Assembly: GCF_000002075.1 (NCBI RefSeq)
Contig: NW_004797555.1
Coordinates: 327,439 to 391,438, forward strand
Direction of reading: 5' to 3'
Source: Aplysia californica
Taxonomy: Eukaryota
Length of the DNA: 64,000 nucleotides
Both the position numbers and the translations under genes were made by a program. Positions 3,283 through 64,000 of this stretch are shown in pieces (the stretch's first letter is position 1; each line of letters begins with the position of its first letter). The notes under the pieces are model-generated. The model ran no database searches. It was not told the DNA's origin and saw only the letters and a program-made list of their open reading frames with translations.

Positions 3283-3341
3283 GTGAGTGCAAGATTGTTT
3301 ATAGTGGCTCTTTTTGTTTTACCTGTCACAAACTGTTAAGT

Positions 3342-18483: not shown

Positions 18484-18521
18484 TTACCATTTTGCACCAC
18501 TTGACTGACATTTGTCCTCAG

Positions 18522-19019: not shown

Positions 19020-20064
19020 GTAATAACGACTTGTTGTTCATGGCTGCCAGCGTTTGGCCTTGGACTCTCCTGCTGCCCCCCTTTTTTCCACCGTCCCGCC
19101 TTCCTTCAAGGGCGGTGGTTTTTTGGTCTCTTGCCTTGCATGGTGGATGAGGGATTTGATGCTCTTTTCGTTATTTGCCTTCCTCTCTGTCACAAAAGGG
19201 ACCTTATGATTATGGAGGTTGAAGCAGTTCTTCTTTGCAATGTTTTTGAGGGTTTTTTTGTTGTTGTTGTTGTCGGTTTTATTATTTTTGCTGAGCATCT
19301 CAGCTTTTTTTTGCATTATTTTCTGATGTTTATCCCTGTCCAAATCTTACAGAGATGTTAAAGCACAAGTAAATATGGAGGTTTTTTCTCTGAGTTATAC
19401 GTGCTTAGTCTTTTAGTAGGAAAATCATTTGTGATTTTGTACATTTGAGAAGTAAATCTTCCTAGTGACAGTGACAGTTTTGAGAAATGAGCATTTTGTT
19501 TGAATGCAATGTTACCAGAAAATGTTAACTTTATTTTTTTTTCCATCTTAAAGTAGGCCTACCACAAAGATATCATGTGATCTTTGACAGCTTTTTGACC
19601 CGTGGTAGCAGGTTCTCATGTGTATTAAAAAAAACAGGGAAAACATATTTTTAGACGGACTTTCTCATACTGGAAGGCACTTTTTTCAGTCTTAGAATTT
19701 AATGCACCAATCACACCGTGCTATTTCCTGACTATGCAGCTCTGAAGGGGCTTTTTTTTTCCTTATGAATTTTTTGCATGGTTTGTAGCAATGATGCTAC
19801 TCTTCTTGTCTCCACACATTTCTGTAATTTGCAGGAGCATTCATCATTGTCAATACATGTCCCATATTTTTTTTGTCTGTGTGTTCATTTGTTTTTGTGG
19901 ATTTATTTATCTGCAAGAAAAGGCACAAGAAGATGTCATGTGAATGAAAAAACGTTACACTATTGAATCAGTGATTATTAAGGGATGGTGGGTGGTTAAT
20001 ATTTAATTTTGGCAATTTAGTGATAACCCCCTCGGCTTTCTTTGAATAAAGAATTGTACTACTG

Positions 20065-22080: not shown

Positions 22081-22970
22081 AGTTTGTTTTGGCTCTTACG
22101 TCTGTTACAATCTGTGAAGCTACAGCTGTCTTCAGTACTCTGCATCGTGTCTGTAGAAGTAGATCAGTCTGGGGGGTATTGAAATATTCTTTCTTTGACA
22201 AACAATACAAACTCTGTTCTAGTTGTGTTTTAATAGTGTTTAGACCACTGTGGTATGGTATTTTAACATATATATATTAAAAAACCTGCAAACTTTACTT
22301 GAAGGTATTTTTTGTTTTTTTTTGGGTTGGGTTTTTTTTTTTTTTGTTTGGGGCTGGGGGGGGGGGGGGGGGGGTAAATTTTCATTGTGCCCAGTCTTCA
22401 TTGCCTTCTTCAGTGATTATATGCTTCATGCAAATATTGTGCACTTTCTTCTACATTATTGTATTATTATATTATTATTATTTCACTTTCACTGTGCATT
22501 CTATATTGGGACTCCTGTCTCCGTATGTGCATGCATATATTTTGTGTGTGTTTTGGTTTTCCTGATTAATCTAAGGGTCTGCCTTGGCATGAAACTCAAG
22601 CTGGATTGATGTACGCTATAACCACCTCTCTTGCTTCACTTGCTTGGCACATATTTGAATATTTTTTTTAATACCTTATTTTGTGCATAAATGCTACTGT
22701 GTGTTTTTGTGGGAGTAAACTCGTGTGACTTTTATTTGTATTGACTTTATTTAGTTTTGTCGAGATAGTGTATTGGTTTATTTAAATAACATTTTTTAAG
22801 CTATTGAGTATTAACATTTTGTGTGTGCATGTGTGTGTGTTTTATGTGTTTCTTAATCGAATACACGTATAAACAAATGAATGAATTCTGTATTAACATT
22901 GTCAGTTAGTTTATATTTGAATGGTATTATTGAGACCTTATTTGATTGGATGTGTCACTTGTGCTTACAG

Positions 22971-23260
22971 GTGGAGTCTACATGCCTCAGGGACAACAGA
23001 TGTACCAGCAAGGAATGATGGGACCACAGCAAGGCATGATGGGACCACAGCAAGGCATGATGGGACCTCAGCAAGGCATGATGGGATCTCAGCCAGGAAT
23101 GATGGGACAGCAGCAGGGCATGATGGGACAGCAACAGCAAGGCATGATGGGACAGCAGCAGGGCATGATGGGAAATCCACAAGGCATGATGAGACCACAG
23201 CAGGGCATGATGGGCCCGCAGCAAGGCATGATGGGACAGCAAATGATGAACGGGTCCCAG
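22971..23260 (+). CDS. SMAP1: SMAP Gln/Gly/Met-rich exon with 11 QQGMMG-type repeats
   Basis: ttacag acceptor, gtctgt donor, phase 1-0; a Met-rich C-terminus is typical of SMAPs. Confidence 0.88.
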
Positions 23261-23594
23261 GTCTGTTTATAAGTTCAGAAAGTTTTGGCACGTGTGTGTG
23301 TGTGTGTGAGCATTGACAGGGTGCATGCTTTTGTCTTCCACTTCCTGTGCTAGTCGTGAAAAAAAGTTAGGAGTAAGCAATGTTCTAGGGTATACCATCT
23401 TAGGTGGGTTATTGTGTCTTGTACTTCGAAACCTTGTCAAAAAAACTCATTTTATTTCTGGTCCTTCTCATATGCGGAGAACTTTTATTGAGTGTCTTGG
23501 TCTTTCTGCTGGGATGCTCTATCCCATTGACACTGACAGACAGGGTAGAAGCCTATCTCACTTGTGTCAGTGTGGAGCGTAAAAGACACCTAGA

Positions 23595-39647: not shown

Positions 39648-39961
39648 CTATCTCCGTCTTTTCTGAGGGGGTTCTGTCGGTGTGGCAGGACTGCTGTTGG
39701 ATGAGGGCGTGTTGCGGGTCCGTTTGGTCCTTTTTGGCGACGGCCCTGGAGTGTTGGAACCCGAGGAATGATGGGAGGACTTACTGCTCGAACTGTGGCT
39801 GGATTTGTGCTCTCCCCTGCTCGATGATGAGCCGGACTTACTGTCGTGTTTACTGGATGAGGACGAAGACTTGCTGTCAGATTTGGAGTCAGACTTTGAA
39901 GAATGTGATGATGACTTTGAATCTTGTTTTCCAGATTTTGAGGAACTTTTTGTCTGCGAAG
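39648..39961 (-). CDS. MRGBP: MRGBP terminal coding exon, Ser/Lys-rich, ending PPQKRRR*
   Basis: tttcag acceptor, phase fits exon 3; basic NLS-like ending as in MRGBP; total CDS 654 nt. Confidence 0.9.
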
Positions 39962-41210
39962 CTGAAATCAGAAAACATTTCACTAACAAAATTAGGTCTG
40001 GAACATTAACACAAGAAATCATCATCATCAATGCCTCTCACCCCTGGCAGGGTACAGGCCACATACAAGTAACACAAGAAATATCTATGACATATTATCT
40101 CAAAATAAAAATATGCAATGCAAATGTCAAAGAAAAGACTTATAAATTCACATTTCAATGACAATTTTTTAAGGAGACAAACCAGCAATATAAACATTTG
40201 TGTTGAGACTTTTGTAAACTTTTATGTTAGAAGCATCAACTCTAGATCTAGCTGTAGGTGATGTGAAAAATTATCAAGAATATAATGGTCATATATGTTC
40301 AAAAGCACTATTATTCAGCAAACATAATTTTGCATTGCCAGTGAGCACTGGGCACGTGCAAGTGTGAGTCAGTGTGCTGAGACTGCAAAAGATTGTTTTC
40401 CTTCACCTCTTCCTGGCTTGTCAATCAAAGACAAGTACCGCACAAAACCTGTGCAAAGCAGGAAACTATATCTCTTCAAAGCAGATGCAGCATAATTCAC
40501 TCTCTCTTGAAAAGTCTGCTGGTCAATTTCATTTTCACTTTAATTCAAATTCAAAAGAATGAAAGCACCTCCAGTTTACCGATATAGAGTACTAAAACTT
40601 TGGCTCCTTTTCTATGAAAATAGTGCAGGAAGAGTTCAAATATACCCTTCCTGACTCAACATCTAGAAAATACTCAAAGGTGTGTACCTTATAGGCTGAT
40701 TCGCTACAAATCAAAAACTAATTTGATTCTGTCCATAACAAAACCTTAAAAACAAATGTTCTCATCTGAACTAGCCCTCCCTTTATCCAAAGAGTTTTTC
40801 TGGGGCCTGAACCACAGAAAGCTAAACTTGTGAAAGGAAGAATTTAATTCCTTCCCTTAAAATTCCTGCTCACACTAATTTTTAGCTGCATAAATACTTT
40901 ACTTTCTATTTCCACGTGAGCTGCAATCCAGTTCCACCTTCCCTAACAGACAACCACCTATAAGCTACATATGACCACTACATCCCTTGCCTTTTTTTCT
41001 GTAATGACATAGTATAGATTGTAAAGTGCATAAAGCTTGCTGTTGAGGAGGGATTTGTGCTACGCAAATGCTATCTATCTATTATTATTATTATATATGA
41101 TGTCCATCTGTTTAAAACAACCACTATTGTCCTCAACAATGGTGGCAATCTTGAAAAATTTTGACTAATCGACATGCAATGCAGACAAGTTTAACAGCTG
41201 AATGACTCAC

Positions 41211-44362: not shown

Positions 44363-45161
44363 AATTGACCTACATTGCATATCACACATGCGGGTAACAC
44401 CGACTTGAAATACTAATACCGTACTTGGTGTGATAACCGTATCTAGGACACTACATCCCTCCTAGCCTTGGATGGTTACTTCGTTTTTCTCAACAGGGTG
44501 TCTGCTGAGGAAGTCAGCTGGATTATTCTCTCCTGGCTGGTAGCGTAGGGTGAAGTCGTAAGGTTGGAGTCTGAGATTCCATCGTTCAATTCTTGCTGAG
44601 GTTCTGGATGTTGTGCTGTTGAAGATTCCTTCAAGGGGTTTGTGGTCAGAGATTACTGTGAAGTGTTGACCAAGTAAGTACAGGTTGAAATGTTCACACG
44701 CCCAGACGACGGCAAGAGCTTCTCGCTCGGTTTGAGAGTATCGTGACTCGACATCAGTCAAAGCACGACTTGCGTATGCCACTATGTGAACGTTGTTGTT
44801 GTCACGCTGTGAGAGAATGCAGCCAAGTCCAAATGGACTTGCATCAACGGTGATCTCAGTGAGGAGATTGGGGTCAAAGTAGGTCATGACTTTGTCACAG
44901 GTGATCATGTCCTTGAGTGTGTTGAACGATTGCTGATGTTCCTCGGACCACGACCAGGGTGTATTTTTGCGTGTTAGGTCTCTGAGTGGTTTTGTGAGGT
45001 CAGCATAGTCCTTGATGAACCGAGAGACGTAGTTAGTCATGCCTAGGAAGCTGCGAACTTCCTTTTGATTCGTTGGTGCCGGCATTTCGTGGACTGCTTT
45101 GATTTTCTTGGGATCTGGAGAGACGCCGTCTCCTCCAAAGATAAATCCATAAAATTCAATG

Positions 45162-45209
<48 letters not shown>

Positions 45210-47264
45210 TGAACTCGCATTTTTGTTTGTTCAGTGTGAGGTTTTTCTCCTTCAGGCGCTCAAAGACTTTCTTCAAAGAGTTGTCGTGTTCTTGTTGCGT
45301 TTTACCGTAGACCAGGATGTCGTCACTGGTGTTGAGGCAGTTGTTGATGTCGGAGAAAACTTCTGAAATGTGGTTCTGAAATATTTCTGCAGCGCTTGTG
45401 ACACCGAAATTCAGTCGCTTGTATCGACGAAGGCCAATATGCGTTGAAAGTGTAGTTATGTTTATTGATTCTTGATCAAGCTCCAGTTGATGATAGCCTT
45501 GGTTGAGGTCAAGCTTGATGAACCATTTGGCTTGATTTAAACGCATCAGAATATCATCTAGTGTGGGCATGATATGGCGTGTTCTCTTGATTGCCTTGTT
45601 GGGAGCACGCATGTCCACACAGAGTCGAATTTCACCAGGTTTTTTGGGTTTGGGCACCACGACAATGGGAGAAATCCAAGGTGTCGGACCATCTACTTTC
45701 TCGATAATGTCGAGCTGCTCTAGGCGTTGGATCTCTTCCTCCACTCTCTTTCTGAGGTGAAAGGGTATTCGGCGATGTGGTTGGGCGACAGGTTGGACTG
45801 ACGGGTCCTGATGCAGTGTGACCTTGATGCCCTTTAATTTGCCGAGACCTTTAAATAGCTCAGGGGATTCACTGCAGAGACTGTTTGTTAAAGAATGAGT
45901 AGGTGTGGTTGTCGCACTGAATGCGAAATTTACAAGTTCCATATCTTCTGCTGTTTTTGCACTTAAAAGATTGCCACATTTCGCTGATTTTTGTGAACGA
46001 ACCACATGGAAGGTTGCTTGCACGGGGTGTTTCTTGTATTTTAAGGTGGACTCGAATTGTCCAATGACTTGCAGTGGTTTGTTACTGCCGTATGCAAAGA
46101 GACGTGTAGATGAGGGGGTCAGCTTGTGTGTATGGCTAAGGCTCTTGTAGGATTGCTCATTTAAAATGTTTACAGATGCTCCAGTGTCAATTAGAAAAGG
46201 GATGCTCTCTCCTGAGAGATATAAGTTCACTTGGGGAGTCTTCTGGTTGGTTTTGACACCGAAAACGTAGTCTTCCTCTGAGGTGTCACTGCTTTCATTT
46301 AGGTGTGCGTTTGTTGATAACGACGATGTGAGGGCTGAGATGGGGGGTACAGGCGATGTGTGGCGGATGGGAATCTTGAAGCTTTCCCTTTTTCTGCGTG
46401 CTGCTTGCTGATATTATAGACAGTGGCAGGCTTTCTATCCGCTTCAATTTCCTGTGCTTGTTCATCTGATATCTCGAGAGCCCTTGCTGCTTTGAGCAGG
46501 TTTTGTAAATCGAGGTCATCTCGCAGAGCACGTCTGCGCAGGCGTTGCGAACTTGCGATGTAAAATTTGAGATTTTAATTCTCTGTCTGAGTCTTGAAAA
46601 TCGCATGTGGCGGCTAGCTTTCTTTGTCTGGTGCAGAAAGAATCTATGTTCTCGCCAGCTTCTTGTCTCGCCTGTCGGAACTTGAAAGTTTCATAATCAA
46701 TATTTTTCTGAGGGGCAAAATGCGTTGTGAGGGACTGGCAGAGTATGTTGTATCCTGCTTCAGTGTCAGATCCTTTTTGTGCAACTGAGAATGTTTCGTA
46801 TATATCGAAAACGTCTTCACCAGCGTAATGCAGTAGTAAAGCTTTCTTTCTCGCGGCGTCGCTTACGCCAATTGCTGTCAGCAATAACTTGAACCGGGAG
46901 AGCCATTTCTGCCACCTCGTGCCTGTGGTACCTTCCCCACCGTGTACGACGAAACGATCGAAGGAAGGCAGGCTAATTGCCGCTGAGGTCATTTTGATAA
47001 TTGTCAATTATTGTCAATTATTGTCACTTACCTCCAAACAATTTTGCACTATTGTAAGGTGTAAGTTATGTTTGTTTTATCCTCGTCGCCATTTGTTATG
47101 TTGAAGGGGCTAGCACAATAAGAAAAACACATGCGAGATCCATGAACGGGTGTTCTGAGACTTCTTTGTTTAATTGACCTACATTGCATATCACACATGC
47201 GGGTAACACCGACTTGAAATACTAATACCGTACTTGGTGTGATAACCGTATCTAGGACACTACA
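44363..47264 (-). mobile_element. Ty3/gypsy (Mag-like) LTR retrotransposon, defective, lacking integrase
   Basis: 171-bp 5' LTR 47264-47094 (TG...CA); PBS TGGCGACGAGGAT complementary to the tRNA-Ser(GCU) 3' end; gag; protease LIDTGAS; RT (LCVDMR, KLDLNQGYHQ, SDDILV); RNase H (VDASPFGLG, YSQTEREALA, NPADFLSR); PPT AGGAGGGA; 3' LTR 44455-44363 runs into an N gap. Confidence 0.95.
44462..47007 (-). pseudogene. Frameshifted gag-pol (gag, PR, RT, RH) of the gypsy element
   Basis: ORF pieces 46516-47007, 45043-46230 and 44462-45085; frameshifts in gag and at the poly-A run in RT. Confidence 0.9.
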
Positions 47265-48645: not shown

Positions 48646-48736
48646 ATGTCTTTTGGTGGTGGATTTGGAGGTAGAGGTGGAGGTGGCAGCAGCGACATCA
48701 TGATGGTTGAATCTGCAAATGTGGGCAAAATCATCG
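48646..48736 (+). CDS. Two-KH/RGG RNA-binding protein, exon 1 (MSFGGGFGGRGGGGSSDIMMVESANVGKII/G)
   Basis: ATG in acaATG context, gtgagt donor, start of a type-I KH domain. Confidence 0.9.
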
Positions 48737-49744
48737 GTGAGTAAAATTTGCTCTTGAAATTACCAATTGATTCAATTCATAGAATCAAAAGTAAAATGGC
48801 TGCGGCCACGAGGGAAACGGTTGACAATTTTTTTTCACCGACTACCTGAATTGTTGAACCTGTAACTTGTTGAGGCTCAGAACGATACTTTACTTCTTAC
48901 CAAATGCTAAATATTTAATGTTGTGTCCAACTTGCACGGAAATGTTGACTTCTGTATGCTGAATACTCTCTTGTTCAAAAGCTTGTGTTTTAACTTAGCG
49001 AGTAGCCTATGGCATGGCATGGTGTGAATGAGATCAGAATGGCGCGATTGCGAGTCAGACATCTAATGGAATCTAGATTACTAATGCACATGGCTAGCAT
49101 TGCTTGATCTAGATTTGGATTAGTCCTATAAGATTAATCTAGATCTAGTCTAGTATGTTATTGCTTAGATTAGATTTTGGGGAGGACTTCCATAACTTAC
49201 GAGCGACCACTTTGAGTTAAAAGAGTAGAATAGAAGGCTAGGGGTAGGATTATTAGCCTCTTTCGGATTGGGGTTAGGGGTAGGGGCAGGTCTCTTTATT
49301 GTGTTTGTTGGGGCGGTCGCTCGTTACAGAAGTCTAGAATCATCTAGATCTAGATTCTAGATCTAGATTCTTCTAGAATCTAGATTGTCATATCATGTGA
49401 CAATGGTTAAGTCAAACTTTGGATTTGGAGGTTGGAAAATTATCCATTAAAATGTTCTGTATGAAATGTTACAGAAGCCGAAGCCGAAGCATTTCAATCA
49501 TGTATGAGGGGAGGAGTTCCGCAGAGGGCCAGCACTTAACATGACAAGGTCCACTGAGCAAATTATACAAGAGTTAGGGTTAGCCTAGGTGTTGTTGGCC
49601 GGCCGGCACTGTGCGGAACTCCTTCCTGAATGAGGAATGTTGGTTGATACAGAGCTAGTAGGCCTACATGTAATCTGCTTTAACATTGAATACTTTATTT
49701 TTATACTTTTCTTTTCAATTATTTAATGGCTGAACTACGCGGGT

Positions 49745-49775
49745 CGCCATTTTGTTTTGCCCGGAAATTCTCGCG
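49745..49775. promoter_or_regulatory. YY1-like (CGCCATTTT) and ETS-like (CCGGAAAT) motif cluster in the overlap of the two first introns
   Basis: consensus motif matches only; a second AAAATGGC lies near 48793. Confidence 0.3.
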
Positions 49776-50009
49776 CTACTCCTCTCTCTCTTTCTCTCTC
49801 TCTCCACTGCCCACAGACAAAATTGTACGCTTTTAGTAGGCTACAGTTGTAATGGAACGTTTGTTCACGGCACAGAATTCTATAATTTTTCTGTTATCAC
49901 AGGGTAGAATTCTGTGGTTTAGGGTGAACGCAAAATTTGGTGAACGCGCACCGGGTGAGAATAGCCACAAGACTCGCCTGCACTCCGGGTGAGAATAGAG
50001 GTGGCTTTT

Positions 50010-50353
50010 TAGATTAGACTAGATGTAGATCTAGACTCTATATCTAGATGTAGATCTAAATCTAGATCTAGATTTAGATCTAGAATCTAGATATCTAGAT
50101 CTAGATTTAGATCTAGATCTAGATCTACATCTCAACGACAAGCAAGCGCTTTCTTCACAAGCACTCGATGTATCGCTTTTGATGTATCGCGAGCAAGCGT
50201 TCTTTCTGTGCGTGTAGGGAGGCACTTCACTACACTACACCAACCACTAAAACAGACAAGATCTATTCTCTAATCTAGATTCTACACTAGACTACACTAG
50301 ATCTAGATCTAGATCTAGATTTAGATTCTAGATCTAGATCTAGAGATAGATCT
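50010..50353. repeat. (TAGATC)n self-complementary simple repeat tracts
   Basis: two dense tracts (50010-50130, 50260-50353); more at 49070-49390, 51384, 53610-53720 and 54020-54250. Confidence 0.9.
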
Positions 50354-50412
50354 ACAACTCCTACTTTACTTTATTTTAAATAGGCCTAATACTCGATCTA
50401 TAACAATAATAC

Positions 50413-50494
50413 CTGCTGGTTTGTGTCCACGCATAGCATGGAAGAGATTCACTTCCATATCAACATTCCATATCAATTCAGTAGAATCAGACAT
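50413..50494 (-). CDS. MRGBP: MRGBP coding exon 1 (MSDSTELIWNVDMEVNLFHAMRGHKPA/G)
   Basis: ATG at 50494, gtatta donor; W..EV.LFHAM.GHKP.G is the start of the Eaf7/CT20 domain; phase fits exon 2. Confidence 0.93.
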
Positions 50495-51550
50495 GATGTT
50501 GTCAAAAAGTAATTTGTTAGCCTAGTTTCGTTTTCCGTGACTTAGGCCAATAGCCAATAGTCAATAAGGCTAAAGGCTAATACAACAGCGCCGCAGAAAT
50601 CGGCGGAAGCAGCTTAGGCTTAAGTAGGTCGCATACTGCCAGGGACGCCGTAATAGGCCTTAGCATTTAAAATATTTTTAACTGGGAAGAATTTGATTTT
50701 TTTTAAAATTCGGAATAAACTGAGCTGTTGTCACAGAATTCTACACTTAGTGTAGAATTCTGTGGCTGTTGTTGACTTTCGAATGAGGGTGCAAACACAG
50801 ATAGCTTTTTTGCTAAGTCTCGTGATAAAGTTGCGCATTTTTTCGAACAAAAAGGCTTGCCATTGGGCCCTATCTGGTTTGGGGTTTGGGTGTTTTACCC
50901 AAAACGAACAGCAGTCTCGGGTTTGTTGACCCGGCCTAGACGACGCTTCGTCGCAGTCTCTGTAGGCCCTATAGGCCTAATTATGTAATTAGGCTATTGA
51001 CGCTTGGCCTATAATGTACTAGCCTGACGGCATCTCTTTCAAATTTTTTATGCCAAGATTGCTGGCATGCCGGGATTTTATTCGAATGATAATACATAGA
51101 TCTAGAAACCCGTTTCGCATCGATTTTGGTTTCTAAGTAATAGCTACGGCTGCAAACGCAAACAAACAATTCTTTCGGTGGACTACGTATGGGCTTGGCT
51201 ACACAAAAGTTACAAAAAAGCCAAACCAAGCGGTCGCGTGCTCCGCCTAGATCTAGTTCAAATAGCCTACTGAAGAAATCAGTTTTCCTTATTTTGACTG
51301 TCGCTTCAAAAGCCGGGCTGTACGTGCTCCTATGGGTTTCAAAATCAAGCACGGGGATCAGTCAAATTATTGAACCATCATAGATCTAGATCTATATTCC
51401 ATCTTTGTTTTTAAATCGTCTTACTTTAATGCGCTATCTACAATACCAAAATATAAGCTAAAAATACAACACAGTGTTTAACATTTTCGGTTTCTTATCA
51501 AAATCCTCGAAACTCAACTGTTTAAAAAAAATTAAAGCTGCAGCTGAATT

Positions 51551-51736
51551 AATCATCATCAATGTCTTTCAACCCTGGCAGGACGTAGGCCACATATGCT
51601 CCTTCCGTTTATCTCTGTCCTGGGCAAGGAGATTAAAAGTAAACTAGCTCGTTCCAAGTGAGCTTCATCTCTCCTCTCATGTCCCTTTCCTCACATCCCC
51701 TCCATGTTTCTCGTGGCCTACCCCTGCTTCGTGCCC
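51551..51736 (-). mobile_element. RTE-clade LINE 3' fragment
   Basis: GRPRETW...AQDR remnants and (GAT)n tail; a shorter tail-only piece lies at about 40018-40065. Confidence 0.7.
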
Positions 51737-52209
51737 AGCCGCTGAATTTATGTGGTATTCAAGGAAAGCATCAAAAACGAAAAACAAAAATCTTCTCCTG
51801 CTACACGGTTAGAAAATATGAGAAAACCGTAATGCACAACGTTGAAACTAGTAAGAAGAATTACCCATCTTAAAAAGCTCGAACGTTTCGAGTAAACCAC
51901 AATGTAATGGACAAACAATGCAATAAAAAATAAACTACAATACTACATCTTTCTTGAATTTAAGTAGGCTAGCATTATTAGGCCTAGTTATCTCTCGTGG
52001 GTAGGCACAGCTTTGAGCTAGCCTTCTGTTCTATCACTTCTTCCACCAGTGCATTTGGGGACCTATTTCACCCATTTGTTGGAAATACATGTGTCCTGCC
52101 CATTGAAGCCCAGTATCACAAGATGTGTACCTTTACACTAAACTACACCCTTTCATTCAGCTTGCTTTCAATTGGTGATCCTAAACATCCAAGATGACTA
52201 CAGCAAAAC

Positions 52210-53237
52210 CAGGGGTGAACAAAACAATTATGAACATTTCCTTTTTTTGTCCCCACATGCCCAGTCGGGCAACTAACACATATATCTGTACTTGCTCAGT
52301 AGAAAAGTCAATTTGCCCGTTTTCAAACATGAAAACCTTTAGACTGTCTCTATATCAAGAAAGAAAAAAAAAGTTGTAAACAGCACTGATGCGGGATATA
52401 AAATAATAAAATCATGTGTTGATATGCTAGTAGGCCTACATGTAATCTGCTTTAACATTGAATACTTTATTTTTATACTTTTCTTTTCAATTATTTAATG
52501 GCTGAATATGATGGCCAAACACAATTCCAAAAAAACTCCTTGTCTTTATGAAGTGTCTGTTCTACTCTCCTGGCTCTGTCACCACCTGGTCCTTTCTAAG
52601 ACAAGTGTCGCATTGTAGTCCATAACACTTGGCCCTTCAATGCAGATATAATGTAGTGGGTGGTTGGCGGGTGCTCTGGTACCGTGTGGTTTGCTTCTTC
52701 TTTCCTATCAAACGTCTATCGCCCTTATCTCCCCTCCTTCTTTTTTATGTTTGTTACTCTCTTGTAACACCTCTAATTCTAATCTTCTGGCGCTCATATG
52801 GCCTTATGCAGTTGCGAGCGCCGTAAAACCTCTAATAAAACAAAAGCAGACATGTTCAACATGGACAGGACATCCGTGTTGAGCTTTTCCCTCCAGTCAG
52901 ATTTGATCCGCTTCATGGCTGAAAAAAAACTTTCTACACTGGCTGTGGACAAAGGAAGTGTGAGCAGGAGCTCAACTAGAAGTACATATGTAGTATGCTT
53001 CTCTGAAGTCTTCCTGTCTTTCTGGGTCTACAAGAAGTAACTTACTACAGATCTAATGGCCTTCAGTTGTTCACTGGCATTCTCCTTATCAGTTGTTTGA
53101 GGGCAGGCCATTTCAATGTCATCGATGGATGCCACCTCTCTCAGCTTTGAGAGAATACATGTACTCAAAAACAATGACTGTCTTGTGGTAATAATGACTT
53201 GCCCCGTCGGGCAGGTTAACCCTATCCATTCGCCCTG
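52210..53237 (-). mobile_element. hAT transposon remnant with C-terminal dimerisation domain, interrupted by a retroposon
   Basis: minus frame VLLVELLLTLPLSTASVESFFSAMKRIKSDWREKLNTDVLSML, continuing YICIEGPSVMDY beyond the 52656-52845 insert; CAGGG-type ends; boundaries approximate and no TSD seen. Confidence 0.65.
52656..52845 (+). mobile_element. ~180-bp headless retroposon inserted in the hAT remnant
   Basis: family match; interrupts the hAT reading frame. Confidence 0.9.
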
Positions 53238-54928
53238 GGGTAAATAATAATTATGCACACGAACTAGCAAACACAGACGTGCCCCTCTCCCTCCACCCAC
53301 CCCCCTCTGTCTATCCCCNNNNNNNNNNNNNNNNNNNNNNNNNNNNNNNNNNNNNNNNNNNNNNNNNNNNNNNNNNNNNNNNNNNNNNNNNNNNNNNNNN
53401 NNNNNNNNNNNNNNNNNNTGGTCGGTCGTGGGGAATACATATTTTCCCCTGAAAATACACATTTTCATATTTCCCAATACTCATTTCGGTTTTCTATGGT
53501 TGGCATCTCTGTTGTCAGTTTATGAATTTATTTCAGCCAGACACTGCCTCATTACGTGTGCATTGGGCTTCGGCTTGACTTACACATGAGCGAGCCTACA
53601 AACTTCAATAGACTAGGCCTAGAGTCTAGATCTAGATATCTAGACTAGGATCTAGATCTAGTCAGGCTACAGAATTATTTTCTGTTAATTGTTACACATG
53701 TAGGTTCTAGATCTCTAGGCCCAATTGAATAGCCTATTGAATAAATTATCATGGCCATCACATTGTGAAAAAAAGATGGGTCCGGAAGGAAAACCACAAA
53801 GTAGATAGAAAAATATGAGCAAGTTGGGATTACCGGTTTTGGCCCCTATGATAACTATACTATGGAGTGTGGCGGGTTTTGGCTCCTCCGGCGATAACTT
53901 CAGGCTGGCAGACCTGGTTCTAAATGACGACGTGCCTGCTGTTTGCTGCTGGGCAAGCAAGGGATGTTAAAAACAAGTGAAATATTACTGCTCATTTTGT
54001 ACTGAAAATTAGAAAGGCATCTAGATCTAGATCTAGCTCTCTTTCGGACGAAAACATCGGTACTGAGTATTTAAAACAATATCAATATCCGGTAGCCCTA
54101 CTCTTGGGGCCAAAAGCAGAAGTTGTCGCAAATTCAGATGAAACAGATTTGGATCAAGATAAGACAACAGAAATTGGCAATCTCAAGTTTTGGCCCCAAG
54201 AGTCAAGAGTAATGAAATGTCAATAGATCTAGTCTCATAGATCTAGTGTCTAATAATAGTAACTTTATGTGTTACATATATGTTAAGGGTAGTAGGGGTA
54301 GGATTCTTGTGTAGTAATAGCAATAAGAGTAGGCTAAGCGTTGAGGCCAAAACCAGATCCCCAGAAATTAGCCTAATTTAAAAAAAAAAATTTTTGCATC
54401 AGAGGTGTGTATTGCCTTTCTGATCTCAATGCTACTGGAAAAGAGAAGCTTTCATTTAGACAAGAGTATCATATACTGTGATATAGGTTAAGTTTTGCTG
54501 AAATCATGAGTGATGCACAGGTGATACATAAGAGACCTTTGTCATTTGACTATGGGGGAGAAAATGTATGAAAAGCGAGTCAACAGATGGATTAATATAG
54601 GATAGGCAGACTGCACCTATTATAAAGAGACATGGATCTCTCCAACAGCTGTACCGTCAGGTTAACTGTGTTCCGATAAATAAATATGGAAGGGCCTTCT
54701 AGAGGGAAGAAGTAAGAGGAGATGCTGATGCCCCATGGTGATAGATTGGGAGATCCACTGTATTTCAGGTCGAAATTTTTTTTATTCAGAGCTTTTGTTT
54801 GCACCTGTTTTTAGTTTTACATCATTTATGACTGACAAATTGCCACAGATTGGTTGTTAAAAAGTAAGTACATTTTTTTGGGTCAAACTTTTCTTATGCT
54901 TGATTTTTTTTTTCTACCTTTCATTCAG

Positions 54929-54984
54929 GTCGTGGTGGCAGTAAAATCAGAGATCTGGAACAGGACAGTAATGCCAGAATTAAG
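54929..54984 (+). CDS. KH gene exon 2 (GRGGSKIRDLEQDSNARIK)
   Basis: ttcag/gtaatt; GXXG loop IIGRGGSKI resembles the DDX43/DDX53 KH domain. Confidence 0.92.
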
Positions 54985-55602
54985 GTAATTGCCGGAAACT
55001 GTTTAAATTATGTTTTAATCTGATTTTTCGGTTCCGGACTTGGTAGTAAGTTACATATCTCACGTTTTTTGCTTTCTGCACATGTTCAAGTTAAAGCATA
55101 ACACACATAAACCATCTACTGTCTTCTTCTTCATTCTTTTTTTGTATTTCCTTCATTGTGTCAGCTAGAATTTCTGGTAACCCGCCTCCCCGCTAAGGCC
55201 ACAAAATTATGTCTGGTCTCCACTGTAAAATAGTTTGTTCAGGCATTCCCCGGATAGGTAGTTGAACCCCTGAAATAGCCACCTATGTAATATAATCACT
55301 TTTACGTTCACTTCCCATTTCCCCATCTGCGTTTTAAAAAATATAGTGGCATTGTGTAAGACGTCCAACTGTCAAAGACAACTGCTTTTTTAGACAATTT
55401 TGACTGTACTTATATTCTGAGGAAAGATGCATACTTAAGTTTTCTTTACTTGCGTTCTTGCAAGGTAGCCTTATGTGCTCGACTTGTTGCAATGCTTTTT
55501 ATCAATTTTTTGTGCCCTTTGTTTTTGAGATGGTGGATTTATTTGCTTTTTGTTTGCGGTACATAGGTCGGTTTGAAAATCTTCATTTGTAATTTTTATC
55601 AG

Positions 55603-55708
55603 ATTTCTCGTGATGAGGATGAAAACGGCATGAAGTCAGTGGAAATCAGTGGCACAGATGAAGAAATTGATGCAGCCAAGAGAATGATAGAGCAGTGTCT
55701 ATCTCAAG
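55603..55708 (+). CDS. KH gene exon 3 (ISRDEDENGMKSVEISGTDEEIDAAKRMIEQCLSQ)
   Basis: atcag/gttagt; KH beta3-alpha3 pattern V.I.G....I..AK.MI. Confidence 0.92.
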
Positions 55709-57769
55709 GTTAGTATGTTCTTGTCTTTGCTGGTGCTCTTGGTCTTAAAGCAGGTGCTATTGGTAGGTCAAACCTTTGTTTCACCTTCTTTGGTAAGTCT
55801 GACCTTCTTTTACAATTGAAGGGAAAGCGCCTTGTTTATGGTGAAAATCTGTAATGCTGTCAGCATTTTTATCATGTTATGGAATATTTTTTAGAATGTG
55901 GGCGCCAGAGCTAAGGTTACTTACTACTGGCAGCAAAAATTAAAGTGTTTCGCATTACTAATGTGCTTATTAGGCTGTTTTGAGTATGTATGGACATGAC
56001 AATTTTGAGAACATGTCACATGGTTGCAGTTTTTTATATCAGGTTTTACAAGTTTCTACCATTTGTTTAGCTCTGCGTCTGAGTGAGTAGTGAGGATTGT
56101 TGCATAGGAATGAAAGTCCACATCATTTGGTTCTGTCGCTTTCATCACTGTTTTGCTGGAGGTTTCTGCAGTTGAATAGTCATACTACACGAAGTCGACT
56201 GTTGTGGCCTCAGGTTTTACCGACAGAATACTGAATATTTTATGATGGAACAGATAATAAATTGCTCACGGAGTTATTATAGTAATTGAAGTACAAAAGA
56301 TGTGCAGAGTATTCCGGAACTGGACGCTGTTTTACTATTGTTTTTTCTCAATTGTTTAGATTTGGATATTTCGATCGGAAATGGTCCAAAGATTCGTTCT
56401 CAATTTGGAGAAAATCTATTTTTGCAGTAAGAATTTTCATAAATGGACAGTGAGTTCGTGTTATATGAGTTGATAGTCCTCCGAAGGATCATTGCATTTG
56501 AGAAAGTATAATGTATTTATAATTAAACTTTAATACATTATAATTCTGGTGTTTAGAAATCATTTTGGAATTACAGAGAACTGTTCTGAATAATGGCTAA
56601 AAAATCTTGTCTGTCATTTAGAAAAAGGGTAAAGTGAAATGATTGTCTGCAAGTTCAGTTGTTGATTTCTTCTGATTTGGTAGTCAGGTTTTGCTAGATT
56701 TTGGAAAAGAAAACTGGAGCAGTTATTCTACTACCTGTTGTAGTGCAAAATTTTTTGACGAGTAACATTAAGTTAATGATTTTTATAAAACTACTGGTGC
56801 TCATAGTCTCAATAGCAATGTATTCTTCACTGTTTGTAGAAGCAGGACCTACTTTCGAAGTCTTTATTTTCCCAATTTGATTTTCCTTTATTGTTGCCAC
56901 AGCTGTATTGCATATAGGACAGAACTTTAAAATATAAAGAGATTCTGAAAAGTAAACACAAGGTTTTTTTTCTCAGAGTTTGTAAATCATGTAGCAAGTC
57001 ATGCTGTGCACTTTGGATCTTGTTGCTGTTTGATTCAGTTCTTTTGCTTTTTGCTATGGTCGAGTATTTCCTTGCATTAAGTTAATCCAACTTGTATGGC
57101 ATAAATTTTTTGTGTTGACTAAAGGAGACAGAACAGTGGGCTTTGATTTTTTATATATTTACTATTTTGAAGTACGAATAATTAATTACCTTGTGTGAGC
57201 TTTTGGTTCGTCAGAAAAACGTACTTTTAAATCTAACAAGTGTGAAATGGTTTCTTGTGTTTGAATCAAAGCCCATGTCAGATACACAGAGTTCTCAAAT
57301 TTGTTGTGAATTTTTGTAATTATTATAAGCCGCTGGTTCATGATGGCATGGAAAGTCATAAATACCTGTCTTGATTTTAAAATAAAGACTTTTACATGGC
57401 CCTTTTTTGTGAGTCGTGAATCTTTTTGTAGGTGAGGGGAAAGTAGGGTTGTGGTGAAATGAACATTTTGAGATTGAATGCAATATTGAGGATATCGGAA
57501 TCTTGCATTTTGAGCTGAAGGGAAGGTGCAGTCAGTTTCTAGGAGATCAAATGCACAGTGAAAAAAAAATCTGTGTGCATTGAGTGCACATAGCAAATTG
57601 ATTAATCACTTTGATGCAAAATGTCATCAGATAGGTCAACTAAAATTTTGTTCGAATGAAAGGATCAGTTCAAAGATTTATCCTGAAAAAATCTTTTCGT
57701 TATTGAAGTACAATTGTGTGTAGAAAGGGCAATGCAAATGTTCGTGTTGACTAAATTATCCTTTTGCAG

Positions 57770-57910
57770 GATCTGACTTTGGTGGAGGTCGTCGTGGGGG
57801 TTTTGGTGGCCGTGGACGTGGTGGTGGAGGAGGAGGATATGGACGAAGGGATGACGGATGGGGTCGCAGAGACGGAGGTGATGGATGGGGGCGTCGTGAT
57901 GATTATGGAG
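57770..57910 (+). CDS. KH gene exon 4, RGG/GWG low-complexity linker
   Basis: ttgcag/gtttgc, 141 nt, phase 1-1; GSDFGGGRRGGFGGRGRGGGGGGYGRRDDGWGRRDGGDGWGRRDDYG. Confidence 0.88.
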
Positions 57911-59556
57911 GTTTGCTCTGAGTTTTTGGTCCTTGCAATGGGTACTGGGGGTGTTGTATTTTGTTTCAAATTTTTTGTCCTCCGTGGTCCTTCAAATGAG
58001 GGGGGGAGGGGTTGATTTTGCGAAATTCCACTCAGTAATTCGATCAAGGATATTAAAAAAGGTTAAAACCATGTTGCTGCTTTTCTGTATTTTTTTCACC
58101 TGCTTCGCAAAGCATTTTTACTGAGGGGATTTGCTAGTTGTTTTTTTTGGGGGGGGGGGTGTTGTATCGGCAACTCACTTTATTGGCTTTCAGTGGTTTA
58201 TGTTCGTGGGTGTTGTGAATGAAACGAGCAGTTGAAATTGTTCGAGGCGGCCACTATTGTCAATGAGTAAAGTAATTTTTTTAAACAGGTGGCCTTTAGA
58301 GTAGGTTCGACTGTACTCTGATTTATCTGCCATTATAAGTAAATTAGCTTGTATGGGAAGGTGAGGCAAATAATGAACTTGGAGAACATTGCTAGATTGA
58401 CAGAATGTGGTTTTTTTTTTTTTAATGGACACCATCTGAAGCTCTCATCAGTTGTGATTAGATGCAGCAAATTTTATCAGGTGTTATCAGGGTGGGTGAT
58501 ATGGTTTGAGTCGCCATTTGAACGTATTCAGCTGTTCCATATGGGACTCTTGAGTCGGAAGCCTTGCCTCAATTACTCCCTTACTCTTTGTTGAGAGGGG
58601 CATTACGGCAAAAACTAGAATATTTGTGATAGTTGTTACATTTTTTTGGTGCATCAACTTAAAGTGGAAGTTTAAATTTTCAATATTAGCTTGTTTGATA
58701 TCCAGCACTCGGTATGTTTGTGAGAAGAGGTATTTCAAATGGCACACAGGATTGTTTTTAAAACTTAAAAAAAAATTTTAATTAAATTTTTATTATGAGC
58801 TTTATGTGATTCGCCATGATTTAGAATTTATGCTCAAAAGCTGAGACTACTGCAGTTTGCACTTTTTTCCTTATTTCTGATACACGTCTTGTGCGGCTCA
58901 ACTAGATTAAAAAAACCCCAGCTAGAACAGTGATGAATTTGTACCTCATACAGAACCATTGATGTGGACATGATTTTTATAGTGAAATTCTGCCAGTTCA
59001 GACACTGAAAGCTGAAAGTGGGCTGAAAACTTTGAGAATTATTCGCATTAATGTTGACAAGAAGCAAATATAGTTGCTCTTGGGGAGATGCAATTTCATC
59101 ATTTTGTTTTGCTAGTGTTATTACCATTTAGCATTGTGCATTAGTTAGGTGGAAATCAACATGAGCTGAACTGTAGCAGCTGAGTGAAATGTGCTGTCGT
59201 CGAGAAGAGAATTGCTTCAGGGTTGTGGCACGAGCTAATGCTGTCATAACTTGCAAATTGTTTTGGTTTTAGCGGACTCCACTGAAACTTGCAAGTTTTG
59301 TTGAATGTTATTTCATGAGACTGATAATCTGTACAAGATATTTATTATTCAAAGATGGGCATTCTTGTGTTTTCCTGTAAGTTAAAAATTTGCTAGACAT
59401 TAATTATTTAAAAAAAAATTTTTTTTTGTGGTTTGGATTTTGATTTGAAATGTCAGTATTTCAGAAAGTCGAATGCCCATCTCTGAATATATTCAGTTGA
59501 CAATGTTCCGAATCAGTATATTTTGTGGGCTTAAATAGAAAGTAATTTCTCCCCAG

Positions 59557-59640
59557 ATCGTGACAGTGGCCGGAGATTTGGAGGCGGTGGCGACTCAGAA
59601 ACCATCTTTGTGGAGTCATCAGAAGTTGGACGCATCATTG
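59557..59640 (+). CDS. KH gene exon 5 (DRDSGRRFGGGGDSETIFVESSEVGRII/G)
   Basis: ccccag/gtaagt; start of the second KH domain. Confidence 0.92.
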
Positions 59641-60814
59641 GTAAGTTCAGCTTAAAGATTGCACCATGCTAATGCTGTATCTGCTCTTTTAAGTTTTCCA
59701 TTATAAAAATTAAAAAGCTTTTTGGCTTTCTGATTGCCAGTCATTTTCCCCACTACTATTCCCCATGTACAAGCCGTTGCAATATTGAAACAACCTGTGG
59801 GCTGTTCTTATTGACATAGGGCAGAACATTTTATGAGGCTTCATAAATTAGAAATACTAAAGTCGAGAGAAAAACCTGCAAGCTGTGCATATCAAATGGA
59901 AATAATTCTTTTAGATGCTTCTCTTTGACCTTCTGTTGCCTTGGTCAGGCCACCGCCACAGGAGGGATAAACAGTAGATTTAAGCTCAATCTGTGGGCCA
60001 AAAAGTCGGATTCAGACGACGATGACTTTCTTTTTATAGTGAACAAACAGATATCTGCAGGAAATGTTGAATTAGATAAATGGACAGTAATGATTGGGAA
60101 ATTAATGGGTGATATTTTTCAATCAAGACGCAAAGAGGAGAGTGCGCAACAGACAGTTGACGATAAATCAACATCGATTGGAATAGGGTGATATTTTAAT
60201 CATGAAAATAAATTAAATGTGAAGGTTGTTCAGGTGGGTTGTTTTTATTGGGTTTTTAGGGGCCTCAAGTTTCATCTTTTTCTCCCAACCAGCTCATTAG
60301 TCATTTCCTATTTTTCGTAAGTGAGCCTTTAGAAAATGTCTTTATTCAACTTATGGTGGATCCTTGGTTGCAGCAATAGTTACAGCGTCCTAATAAAGCC
60401 ATTTGTAAACTTTTACCTCATAAAATTTTTTCATCTACTCGGGCATAAATGTTAATAGGTTATGACAAACAACACAAGCAAAATTTATTCTAGAATAGTT
60501 CTGCTTCACAGAAACACAGGGCCAGTTGTAATGAAATAATCCAGTGTCTGCAACAATTGCAACATATGTGTTAGCACAAGCAGTTTGTTAAGAGATATGT
60601 GCAAAATGCTAGTGTGTGTTGTATTTTAGTCTTGTTTTGTAGTCAACTGGATCAAAATGGTCTCAAGCTTAGAGGTAAAAGTGATTAAAAGCTATTTGCA
60701 TTTTATAAATTTATTATGGCAATGAAGAGCATCTTAGGTATTTGCAGCTACTTCATGTATGCTTGAATGCCAATTATTTTATGTTGCTAATATATTACGT
60801 AAACTTTTTAACAG

Positions 60815-60870
60815 GTCGCGGTGGTAGCCGGATACGAGACATGGAATCAGAGTCTGGCTGCAGAATAAAG
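60815..60870 (+). CDS. KH gene exon 6 (GRGGSRIRDMESESGCRIK)
   Basis: aacag/gtatgt; 56 nt, paralogous to exon 2. Confidence 0.92.
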
Positions 60871-61440
60871 GTATGTTGAATATTTTTGAAGAGTTTCGAG
60901 TTTCTATTATAATGCATATTGATACATTAGAAGAAAATTACTGGTAACGGCAGGTAATAAAGATTCAAATGCTCCATGTTAGTCCTTTGTTTAATTTTTG
61001 ATGTCTTTTTAAATAGAAGTAAAGGTATCCACAAATTATTTATCTTAACACACCACACCCTAAGATTCTGGACGGGAAGTGTATTCCTGAATCATATGCA
61101 AGGGTAGGTTTACAAGGATTTTGATTTTAAAAAATTTAAACTTAAAAATAAAATTCCAAAATTAGAATAGGTCATAGTGATTGTAGTTTATCAGAAAAAT
61201 ATAACTTTATAAGCAAGGGTTCTTGGAAATATTCTAGCTTTACTTCAGTCTGGGTGTTCAAAAAGTTGTTCACCCTGTCTCGAAGTCGGGCTCTCTATCT
61301 ACATCCGATTATTTGAATTGCCTCCCAACACTTGCTTTGTTTTCATCAATATCTAATTCGACTTATTCATCATTTGCTTGCTTGGTCTAGTTCATATCCA
61401 TCATTTTCTTGTTCTAGCTCAATTGTATCGCTTTTCAACT

Positions 61441-61620
61441 GCAGGTAGTTGGCGGGTGCTCTCGTGTGGTCTGCTCCTTCTTTCCTGTCAAACTTCTATC
61501 GTCCTGATCTCCCCTTCTTTTTTATGTTTGTTACTCCCTTGTAACACCTCTAATCTTCTGGCGCTCATATGACCTTATGCAGTTGCGAGCGCCGTAAAAC
61601 CTTTACCAAAACTAAAACTA
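61441..61620 (+). mobile_element. ~180-bp headless retroposon
   Basis: family match; 11-bp TSD gcttttcaact. Confidence 0.9.
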
Positions 61621-62155
61621 GCTTTTCAACTCCACTTAGATTGGCTTTAATACAAGAACTGCTTGCCCGAAAAATTTCATTTATGTATGAAATTGAAGAA
61701 GAAACATTTTGCAATAACTATCTAAAACAATATCTTGACTTCCATTCCAAAGACACCTGATCTGAGCGTGCGATTGCGGGCATGTTTGGGTGGCGCATGT
61801 AGAGAAATTTACGGACGATCATGGGCCAGTTTCTGTGTTATGTATATATGCGTAATTTTTTTGCACGCAGTGTCAAAATAGCATTAAGTTTTTATGAGTG
61901 CCACAGTCTTTCAAATGAGTCTGATGTTCTCATTGGTCATTTTCTAGCTAGTCTTTGGTAAGTTTCGTGTCAAATGTCCTTGGGATAAGGGACAAATGTA
62001 ATGTGGATCAAATTGTGAGTACAAGTGAAAGATTATTTATCGTCCTTGTTTGTATTTCTTTAGCTAATTGGGGTGTATGTACCTCCATGCAGGTTTATTT
62101 AGAATCGGTTTTTCTCCTCCCTTCCCTTTCCCTTCTGGGAATTGTCTTTAACTAG

Positions 62156-62290
62156 GTGTCCAGAGATGGAGACTCCCAGGGTCGTAGTTCAGTGGAATTG
62201 TCTGGTAACAGAAACCAAATTTCTGATGCCAAGAAGATGATTCAAGAAGCTGGTGTAGACATCATGAATGGAGATGGCCGTGGTTGGTGA
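62156..62290 (+). CDS. KH gene terminal exon (VSRDGDSQGRSSVELSGNRNQISDAKKMIQEAGVDIMNGDGRGW*)
   Basis: actag acceptor, completes KH2, TGA at 62288-62290; total CDS 669 nt (222 aa). Confidence 0.9.
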   Translation: MSRDGDSQGRSSVELSGNRNQISDAKKMIQEAGVDIMNGDGRGW

Positions 62291-62954
62291 AGTATTCTGC
62301 CGGTTTTCTTCGCGAGGACTTACGCAATTGAAAAAATAATTGTCTCCATGTCGTTTGTTGTGTTTTGGAACTAGTTTTTTTTTTTTTACTGATTGAAACT
62401 TGTGGATGAATAAGTTAAGATGCGTGAGTCGTCATTTTTTGAACAAGCCAGCTGTTTATTTTGTCCCTTAACCAGCTTTTTGAAAAGGGAAAAGTCGTAA
62501 ATCAAGTACATACTTGAAAGAGCTCACATACCAGTAACCCAGTGTCATGAGAATCATTGCTGTATATTGATTCACTGTATTTGATGTTTGCTGCAAAATT
62601 CAGCGCCCCAATATGAATTACAAATCACTGAATGTTGCATTTTGCAGAACTGAGAGGAGTGGAGAAAAGGACTCCAAGTATTAAAAATTCGCCCGTTTTG
62701 AAATCTTATGTGTATTTTTTTTATGCATTTATTTTCCCCCTCATTTTTAGAGATGCTCTTGTAATACTCACCAAATTGGTGGGTATCAAAGTCAATTCCA
62801 AAAGTATTGGTTGCTCTTGTGTTAGAACTGGGAATGCCATTCACACAAGACTTCATGCCTTTTCATTCATGTTTTTATTGACTTCTGAGTTTTTTAATCA
62901 AACATTGACATTCTTTTTTTTTTAATCATGTCTTTTTCATGCCAAGCATGTTTC

Positions 62955-62960
62955 AATAAA
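62955..62960 (+). terminator. Candidate polyadenylation signal of the KH gene
   Basis: AATAAA about 670 nt after the stop, with T-rich sequence downstream. Confidence 0.6.
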
Positions 62961-64000
62961 AGGTGACCATAGGTTGAATGTACCTCTTACTCAGTTTTTA
63001 TTTGTTACTTTAGCCATTCCCTATTTAAGAAGGGATGTACTATGTATGTTTCCATGTTGAAAAAGCCTCTCAAGCTATAAACCAGGCGATGTAGCGAGGC
63101 TTTGTTGTTGTTCCGTAATGACATCTACACTATCATTCAATTTTGGTATCCATCATATTTTTCTACCACGAGCGTTTGGGGGCATGAATAGCTTGAGAAC
63201 TGTACAGCCATGTAATGTACCAAAGAAAGCTGAAACAATACCCTGGGTTGCAGCTTGGCCGCTTCTGAACCTGTTTCGCAATACTAATATGGGCATTTTA
63301 TTTTTTTTCTCAAAGGTTACGGTCAGGATAATTGTCAGTCCATTAATGGATCCAGGAATTTTTCTAGCAATTCAGCAGGTAAATTTTCATGTTGTGTTTG
63401 TAGTTTTGTTTTTATTTACATATCAAGTGCTGAAGCCATAATCTGCAGTTATCTGAGTGGATCTATTCACATACGCCCAATTATTGTATATTTTGGATAC
63501 CATAAGTGAAAGATACGATTTGTGTCAATTATAATTATATCTTTCCATTCAACTATTAGCGGTGTTAGTCATATGAGGGTTGGCAACAAGTTTAAGTATT
63601 GTGATAGCTTGAGTTTTTCAAGTTCTATGTGATGATAAGCTGTGGCATGTTGCAAACAGGCCCCTTGCTCTCTTGTGTATTTATGTGGTCTTTAAAAGAA
63701 AAAAGTTTGGTAGGGCTGAACAAATTTTTTCTCTGCCGATGATTATTCAACACCTTTTGTGAACTTTATGTTCATCAGAAAAAAACCCAGGTTTTTAATT
63801 CACATACAGGGGTAAATTGGTTTTGACCAAGCTTTTCATTACGGGGCATGTTCCCATCAGGTCCATACCAGTACATTTAGAAGGGTTCTCTTGTTCTTTA
63901 TGTAATTGCTTGTAAAAGTAGAAATTAGCTCAGTTTTTTATGGATTGGTAGGTAATAACACATGACCCCAGTGTCAAGGTCCTACTCTGATCTAAGACAA

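Follow-up and report, generated by a model that had tools for sequence, protein, structure and literature searches.

A two-KH protein of Aplysia californica as the probable helicase-less short isoform of DDX43

The question raised by this locus is whether an RNA-binding protein that carries the KH domains of a helicase, without the helicase itself, has a gene of its own. The locus lies in a 64,000-nucleotide stretch of the Aplysia californica genome (assembly GCF_000002075.1, contig NW_004797555.1, positions 327,439 to 391,438 of the forward strand; hereafter the window), and its product is a 222-residue protein with two KH domains of the DDX43/DDX53 type. DDX43 is described as a germline factor and as the only DEAD-box helicase that carries a KH domain. 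A preliminary description of the window had placed the protein in a separate, lineage-restricted family. The analysis presented here argues instead that the protein is the 5′ part of the only DDX43 locus found in the genome. It is probably the short isoform of that one gene, an abundant RNA binder devoid of a motor, produced by polyadenylation ahead of the helicase exons; a helicase-less DDX43 isoform is likely both conserved and dominant.

Seven exons can be read from the letters of the window. Every intron begins with GT and ends with AG, and the resulting open reading frame of 222 codons corresponds to XP_005101543.1 of A. californica, for which NCBI lists two further splice variants, with the linker between the KH domains either shortened (211 residues, via a donor at 57877) or dropped by skipping exon 4 (175 residues). 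Six of the 24 listed sequencing runs were examined; their tissues are not given. Spliced reads in run X24 cross the joints between exons 1 and 2 (11 reads), 2 and 3 (37) and 6 and 7 (9), while joint 5-6 is covered by a transcript contig of run X7; joints 3-4 and 4-5 are absent among the 15 joints displayed for X24, of which 306 more are undisplayed. Upstream, a transcript contig reaches back to 48603. At the other end, 1,283 reads of a poly(A) library carry an A tail behind 62978, where the depth at the end of the 3′ UTR is near 3,300 of 14.8 million reads, and contigs from X7 and X16 span 62154-62978, continuing unbroken through a potential splice donor at 62282. The short mRNA is thus real and well expressed. 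The AATAAA signal begins at 62955, 23 nt before the tail site and 665 nt past the stop codon, so that of the stop and poly(A) signal first placed directly after the second KH domain, only the stop is found there. A further X16 contig (58917-59584, depth 25, where the other intronic pieces shown have 3-14) begins within the 3′ portion of intron 4 and extends to exon 5, and would represent either a retained intron or an internal start giving a product with the second KH domain alone.

The protein encoded by this mRNA bears out the two intact KH loops first noted. Both GXXG loops read IIGRGGS, and Pfam detects two KH_1 stretches (E 1e-33), with only KH-type families above the cut-off. The AlphaFold model contains two type I KH folds with pLDDT of about 90, joined by a disordered segment (residues 87-142), and does not fix the mutual orientation of the domains (pTM 0.36). 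The linker comprises 60 residues, of which 47% are Gly and 22% Arg. The two KH domains are 51% identical and are interrupted by introns at the same two places: exons 2 and 6, which encode the loops, have equal size (56 nt) and equal phases, and the first intron falls in phase 1 within the first Gly of the KH1 loop. Because of this identity and the two shared intron places, the pair likely arose by tandem exon duplication. Less specific searches were uninformative as to family: the top ESM Atlas feature score was 0.80, below the bar of 0.9, with generic KH clusters only, and a search of representative proteins returned mainly multi-KH proteins, raised by their domain count.

When the genome was searched with DDX43 from Biomphalaria, the closest helicase exons proved to lie on the same strand just downstream of the window, beginning 2.2 kb past its end. 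(Positions above 64000 continue the window numbering; contig coordinates, labelled G000:C285, equal that number plus 327438.) This is the one set of DDX43-grade helicase exons found in the genome. Eight of the nine matches on the contig are 67-89% identical and the ninth, which runs across an intron, 48%, whereas the 50 matches elsewhere are at most 65% identical, including four with better E-values at 35-54%. Two other DEAD-box cores occupy single long open frames of 559 and 473 residues (G000:C20:902469-903659 and C525:326445-327533), and are 35-37% identical to DDX43. The only close KH exons in the genome are those of the window, and a separate set was not detected in the interval from the poly(A) site to the DEAD core. 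The borders of 17 downstream exons were fitted by script to an Elysia protein, not read from RNA. They form an open frame without a stop, contain all DEAD-box motifs from Q to VI, and specify a core 74.8-81.5% identical to four heterobranch DDX43 cores. Joining donor 62282 to an acceptor at 66234 yields an open 24-exon frame for a 736-residue KH-KH-DEAD protein.

Since intact DDX43 core exons lie directly downstream, on the same strand and in an open frame, the locus is, as judged from these alignments, DDX43. The term helicase-free, applied to the protein at the outset, therefore suits the polypeptide, which ends at 62290 with the RNA cleaved at 62978, but not the gene. Helicase exons beyond position 64000, raised then as a possibility that would count against a separate family, exist in the DNA, although in Aplysia no transcript was observed that continues into them. 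In Bombyx, the DDX43 core binds Ago3 and hydrolyses ATP, and the KH domain is needed for hydrolysis but not for Ago3 binding (PMC8025031). The conservation of the Aplysia core therefore argues that it still receives its KH domains.

Table 1. Features of the short transcript and of the predicted long form. Coordinates are window positions unless a contig is named.
Feature	Position	Strand	Remarks
Exon 1, coding part	48646..48736	+	FGG/RGG leader and start of KH1; joint 1-2 in RNA
Exon 2	54929..54984	+	KH1 GXXG loop and helix; 56 nt; RNA joints
Exon 3	55603..55708	+	KH1 second half
Exon 4	57770..57910	+	Gly/Arg/Asp low-complexity linker; disordered in AlphaFold model
Exon 5	59557..59640	+	Linker end and KH2 start
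Exon 6	60815..60870	+	KH2 GXXG loop and helix
Exon 7 as short-form terminal exon	62156..62978	+	KH2 second half (coding part 62156-62290), stop 62288-62290, 688-nt 3′ UTR
Internal phase-1 splice donor after 62282	62280..62290	+	Overlaps last two codons and stop; predicted short/long switch point
AATAAA signal and cleavage site	62955..62978	+	1,283 A-tailed reads; within predicted long-form intron 7
Predicted long-form intron 7, first part	62283..64000	+	Continues beyond window to predicted exon 8
Predicted exon 8	G000:C285:393672-393806 (= L031:2234-2368)	+	Acidic linker, IDW motif; fitted to homologue
16 predicted exons after exon 8	G000:C285:407231-428933	+	Intact DEAD-box core and RGG tail

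The point at which the two forms would part is the internal donor at 62282, and the Gly-Trp-stop that ends the short protein is simply this donor read through. Its score of 5.0 is undercut by only 3 of the 22 other donors of the gene, whereas the score of acceptor 66234 (6.2) exceeds that of 12 of the 22 others. A weak donor is as expected if splicing competes with the poly(A) site. Furthermore, six DDX43 models, each from a different species and together covering four genera (Lymnaea, two Biomphalaria, Plakobranchus and two Elysia), start with the same KH pair and leave it after the same RG; a G-[FY]-x-x-D motif follows in five, and DFDQD in the sixth. Because the exit and the motif are shared, the joint at this RG seems to be coding sequence that two distant groups of snails have conserved. 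The RefSeq Biomphalaria model reads through the Trp before continuing, as would be expected from another donor four bases downstream. Among relatives of near-equal length, 37 of 86 end in RGW or SGW, and all seven contigs with such an end have TGG TGA. The last Gly codon is GGT, which keeps the GT of the donor, in five of six distinct contigs (L065 was dropped as a near copy of L064), against a background of 40% (P 0.04); as the lineages are related and not independent, this bias lends the conserved donor weak support.

Evidence for the short form is also found in another snail. Ls-SMP-175, a Lymnaea mantle product labelled DDX43, has a complete open reading frame of 243 codons at 189-920 of a 1,343-base contig (PMC7299971). 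It is listed there with KH domains only, a pI of 5.55 and 98% similarity to Biomphalaria DDX43 (Table S4). Its FPKM is 14,427 in that table and above 20,000 in the text, and it was called housekeeping and was among 207 proteins identified in the shell by LC-MS/MS (liquid chromatography with tandem mass spectrometry); the portions of the report at hand do not remark upon the missing helicase (PMC7299971). When the Lymnaea DDX43 model is cut at the donor point, the product has 242 residues, one below the Ls-SMP-175 frame, and a pI of 5.55. One snail thus appears to have both a fused model and a short product on record. Public metagenome collections agree: among 80 contigs kept of 309 confirmed matches, all 21 transcript contigs with at least 45% KH identity end without a DEAD core, and three more distant ones carry a core motif.

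Several observations weigh against the two-product reading. No RNA joint between exons 7 and 8 was seen in Aplysia. The exon 8 region (L031:2050-2600) has contigs in none of three transcript-like runs (X15, X16 and X18), although contigs drop rare forms and cannot show absence. Every fused heterobranch sequence in hand is a genome-based model and none a transcript assembly; in NCBI the short products carry the name of a separate gene, and the matches include no fused protein from Aplysia. The Lymnaea correspondence extends to length, pI and domain list, not to sequence, and peptides from the shared N-terminus cannot separate short from long forms. Six of eight donor-acceptor pairs tried give closed frames. 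Among them, splicing to a pyrimidine-rich acceptor at 66199 (score 5.3, compared with 6.2 for 66234) runs into a stop 18 codons later. Translation of a helicase without KH domains could begin at an in-frame Met (66308); the run of 24 open codons ahead of this Met is within chance, being matched by 29% of intronic frames. As for function, Ala81 of human DDX43, three residues before the GRGG loop, is important for binding (PMC7949032), whereas Lys28 and Arg157 occupy this position in Aplysia, as Lys or Arg do in the fused snail models; the human RNA preferences may consequently not carry over.

Some of these points raise the possibility that the gene was split in the Aplysia line. The ancestral acceptor would be 66199, now out of frame; the KH half would have become its own gene, and the helicase would start separately, at Met 66308 or from another first exon, perhaps with KH help in trans. 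By hand count, the 62282-to-66199 splice falls short of the spacing in Elysia by a single base, and a missing base in the assembly, which would hide an in-frame splice to 66199, was rejected as an explanation, since an independent DNA contig of run X1 spans exon 8 without an indel. The Met has a purine at -3, NCBI treats the KH part as a gene, and Nucella and Artemia have separate KH-only genes alongside DDX43. Conversely, 66234 offers a good in-frame acceptor, and the sequence ahead of Met 66308 has 50% GC compared with 36% and 30% in its flanks and aligns with the Elysia linker (E 0.001 for exon 8 as a whole, in a small search space). In addition, a KH-less Bombyx mutant has little ATPase activity (PMC8025031). 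Fission is therefore held to be unlikely, and it is quite probable that Aplysia makes both forms.

The kinship of the KH domains points to DDX43. The top named longer relatives of the 222-residue protein are heterobranch DDX43 helicases, which start with the same two KH domains; KH identity is 63-87% to five hygrophilan and sacoglossan DDX43 models (Lymnaea, Biomphalaria, Plakobranchus and two Elysia) and 51-63% to Bradybaena, as opposed to 28-41% to three insect FUBPs. Two KH-domain trees were built, neither with a protein named as vertebrate or insect DDX43. Tree 1 holds 145 domains in 66 columns from 64 proteins hand-picked from 364, and with 60 open forks and an unsettled bootstrap it was used for local groups only; tree 2 holds 26 of those proteins in 132 columns. 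The Aplysia domains fall among heterobranch DDX43 KH domains with support of 97/84 and 96/90 in tree 1 and 99/99 in tree 2. The DDX43 character of these domains and the rejection of FUBP, both put forward in the preliminary description, are thereby upheld.

NCBI names the protein FUBP1-like, and FUBP1/2/3 (KSRP, PSI) do share type I KH domains with intact GXXG loops and Gly-rich flanks. Those proteins have four tandem KH domains compared with two here, and form a branch of their own; the best FUBP match of the Aplysia genome, among 30 KH loci fetched, is on another contig (C56). The FUBP1-like name is, on these comparisons, wrong. A related view, that an independent two-KH family or a FUBP relative merely lies upstream of DDX43, could draw on the database names FUBP1-like and BTR1, on the best solved-structure matches (FUBP1, KSRP and PCBP2), and on an approximately unbiased (AU) test that leaves the Aplysia row beside the FUBP outgroup unrejected (p 0.06). 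That p-value concerns only the attachment of a very long outgroup branch, however, and no DDX43 chain was listed in the PDB searches to compete. Together with the placement in both trees, the location of FUBP on C56 and the rejection of a single clade of KH-only proteins described below, these considerations largely refute an independent or FUBP origin, which is hardly credible for this locus.

KH-only proteins do not form one family across invertebrates. The KH-only protein of Artemia groups with Artemia DDX43 (100/99), that of the annelid Paralvinella with Paralvinella DDX43 (96/96) and, less firmly, those of caenogastropods with caenogastropod DDX43 (82/76); a single invertebrate KH-only clade was rejected by the AU test at p 3e-32 (12 short against 14 other rows). 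The KH-only gene and DDX43 of Nucella have consecutive locus numbers, and those of Artemia have close accession numbers on one chromosome and are 80% identical, so that both pairs are likely neighbouring genes; in Bradybaena the two are on different chromosomes. The simplest reading of the trees is that a motor-less DDX43 N-terminus arose several times, in certain lineages as an isoform and elsewhere through duplication, although gene conversion between neighbours could also cause pairing within lineages.

Other arrangements of these domains were encountered. Short, Gly-rich proteins combine one DDX43-type KH domain with CCHC zinc knuckles (P0076, P0078, P0081, L122:1-600 and P0310), and because scallop DDX53 has a KH-CCHC-CCHC-KH order before its core, these proteins may represent additional offshoots that lack the motor. 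In Bradybaena, four DDX43 models in a row (BsWGS_02650-02653; P0234, P0246, P0248 and P0349) have KH domains that have diverged, and Physella has KH-only models on five different contigs (P0006-P0008, P0057 and P0351).

The proposed switch has a textbook counterpart in the secreted IgM heavy chain, a composite terminal exon produced by intronic polyadenylation. As in such isoforms generally, a weak donor set against a downstream poly(A) site decides the C-terminal module; the module lost here differs in being a helicase motor, and the short form is apparently the main product. Premature polyadenylation is also an established means of silencing long genes, which lends some weight to the idea that the short RNA is mainly an off switch, barring the helicase from the soma, and its protein of little consequence. 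The short form does predominate among transcript contigs. Yet 34 columns are invariant in 32 short proteins compared, a pattern that selection on the long form could also cause, and splicing alters the length of the linker in Aplysia, a length that also differs between Physella models. In the mantle of Lymnaea the short form is expressed at housekeeping level (PMC7299971), and KH-only genes exist separately from the helicase in caenogastropods, Artemia and an annelid. That the short RNA is mainly an off switch is very improbable.

If the short protein is instead an isoform with a function, its action can be sketched from what is known of DDX43 elsewhere. Where donor 62282 is ignored, the ribosome would read Gly-Trp-stop and the RNA would be cleaved 0.7 kb downstream; where it is used, probably in the gonad, the 736-residue helicase would result. 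On its own, the KH domain of human DDX43 uses its GRGG loop to bind DNA and RNA that are single-stranded and rich in pyrimidines (PMC7949032). Two independent KH domains could similarly hold short single-stranded motifs, with the RGG/GWG linker adding multivalent binding of low specificity, so that the short protein would coat or package RNA and hold it without unwinding. In Bombyx, DDX43 acts in the piRNA ping-pong cycle, and RNA release requires the KH domain as well as the core (PMC8025031). The short form would therefore bind RNA without releasing it, and since it is the Bombyx core that contacts Ago3, the short protein is not expected to dock there. Where both forms occur, the short one would compete with full-length DDX43 for the same sites, one of the two putative roles, adaptor or competitor, suggested in the preliminary description. 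A structure prediction pairing the two KH domains of Biomphalaria DDX43 with the core of that protein scored 0.00 in two runs, with no alignments used, and tells neither for nor against contact between them.

Given the Gly/Arg-rich linker, whose length is set by splicing, and expression at housekeeping level, the likeliest role in somatic cells is the general coating or packaging of RNA; where the two forms meet, the short one would compete with the long. Mollusc soma contains PIWI proteins, piRNAs and ping-pong amplification (PMC6128900), and an effect of the short form on this pathway is possible, as the least supported step of the scheme.

Compared with DDX43 as it is known, the Aplysia gene has the GRGG-loop type I KH domains, KH identity of up to 87% to snail DDX43 and an intact DDX43 core at the same locus. 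It differs in that its main product lacks the core and in having two KH domains with an RGG linker, where one KH domain is described for DDX43 (PMC8025031, PMC7949032). Moreover, human DDX43 is described as germline- and cancer-specific, whereas the short form in Lymnaea is abundant in the somatic mantle.

A possible mammalian parallel is a lead only. Pfam MOEP19 scores 33.5 on the 222-residue protein against a 30-bit cut-off, a cross-hit, and the DPPA5, KHDC1 and OOEP genes presumably adjoin DDX43 in mammals. Human chromosome 6 carries DPPA5 as well as DDX43 (PMC5068768). KHDC1, DPPA5, ECAT1 (FILIA) and OOEP (PMC3261892) resemble the Aplysia protein as KH-fold RNA binders without a catalytic domain, but they are eutherian and possess one atypical KH domain with an N-terminal extension, in contrast to the two canonical KH domains within a DDX43 locus here. 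A broader proposal can be framed, possible but doubtful: that DDX43 is a two-product gene in heterobranchs, supplying, through a conserved switch between donor and poly(A) site, a somatic housekeeping KH-RGG-KH protein and a rare helicase; that the former was independently fixed as a separate gene in caenogastropods, Artemia and an annelid, and perhaps as mammalian DPPA5/OOEP; and that the short form would act as a clamp governing the amount of DDX43-type RNA release in a cell, including that of the piRNA ping-pong cycle.

The surrounding sequence contains several other features. On the minus strand, 44465-47007 holds three frames of LTR-retrotransposon (long terminal repeat) type (gag-like, aspartyl protease, reverse transcriptase with E 9e-22 and RNase H with E 2e-34); the distance from these frames to the start of the gene is about 1.6 kb. 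Within the gene, 52650-52850 and 61460-61610 are two copies of a short repeat of very high copy number, SINE-like, with A-tailed reads. Long low-complexity frames at 18509-19147 (plus strand, Ala/Ser/Gln-rich), 22921-23310 (plus strand, a short tandem repeat) and 39651-40037 (minus strand, Ser-rich) have the appearance of exons from adjacent genes; the two that were scanned gave no Pfam family above cut-off.

A literature search, outside which lay subscription papers and bioRxiv supplements, found no description of a helicase-less or KH-only DDX43 product. DDX43 combined with "intronic polyadenylation" returned 0 papers, the PMC10799875 supplement has no DDX43 entry, and in the part of PMC11699755 consulted DDX43 occurs only within a gene list. 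The gene is thus known and the proposed switch is of a familiar kind, whereas the helicase-less product is not described in the literature searched. Its meaning is that the RNA-binding half of DDX43 is made alone, abundantly and, it appears, repeatedly in invertebrate evolution. The result corrects FUBP-like names in several genomes, and implies that "DDX43" counts in snail transcriptomes can mean the helicase-less protein, as in the Lymnaea shell study. It also offers a simple test of the KH module apart from its motor, in animals with a somatic piRNA pathway (PMC6128900).

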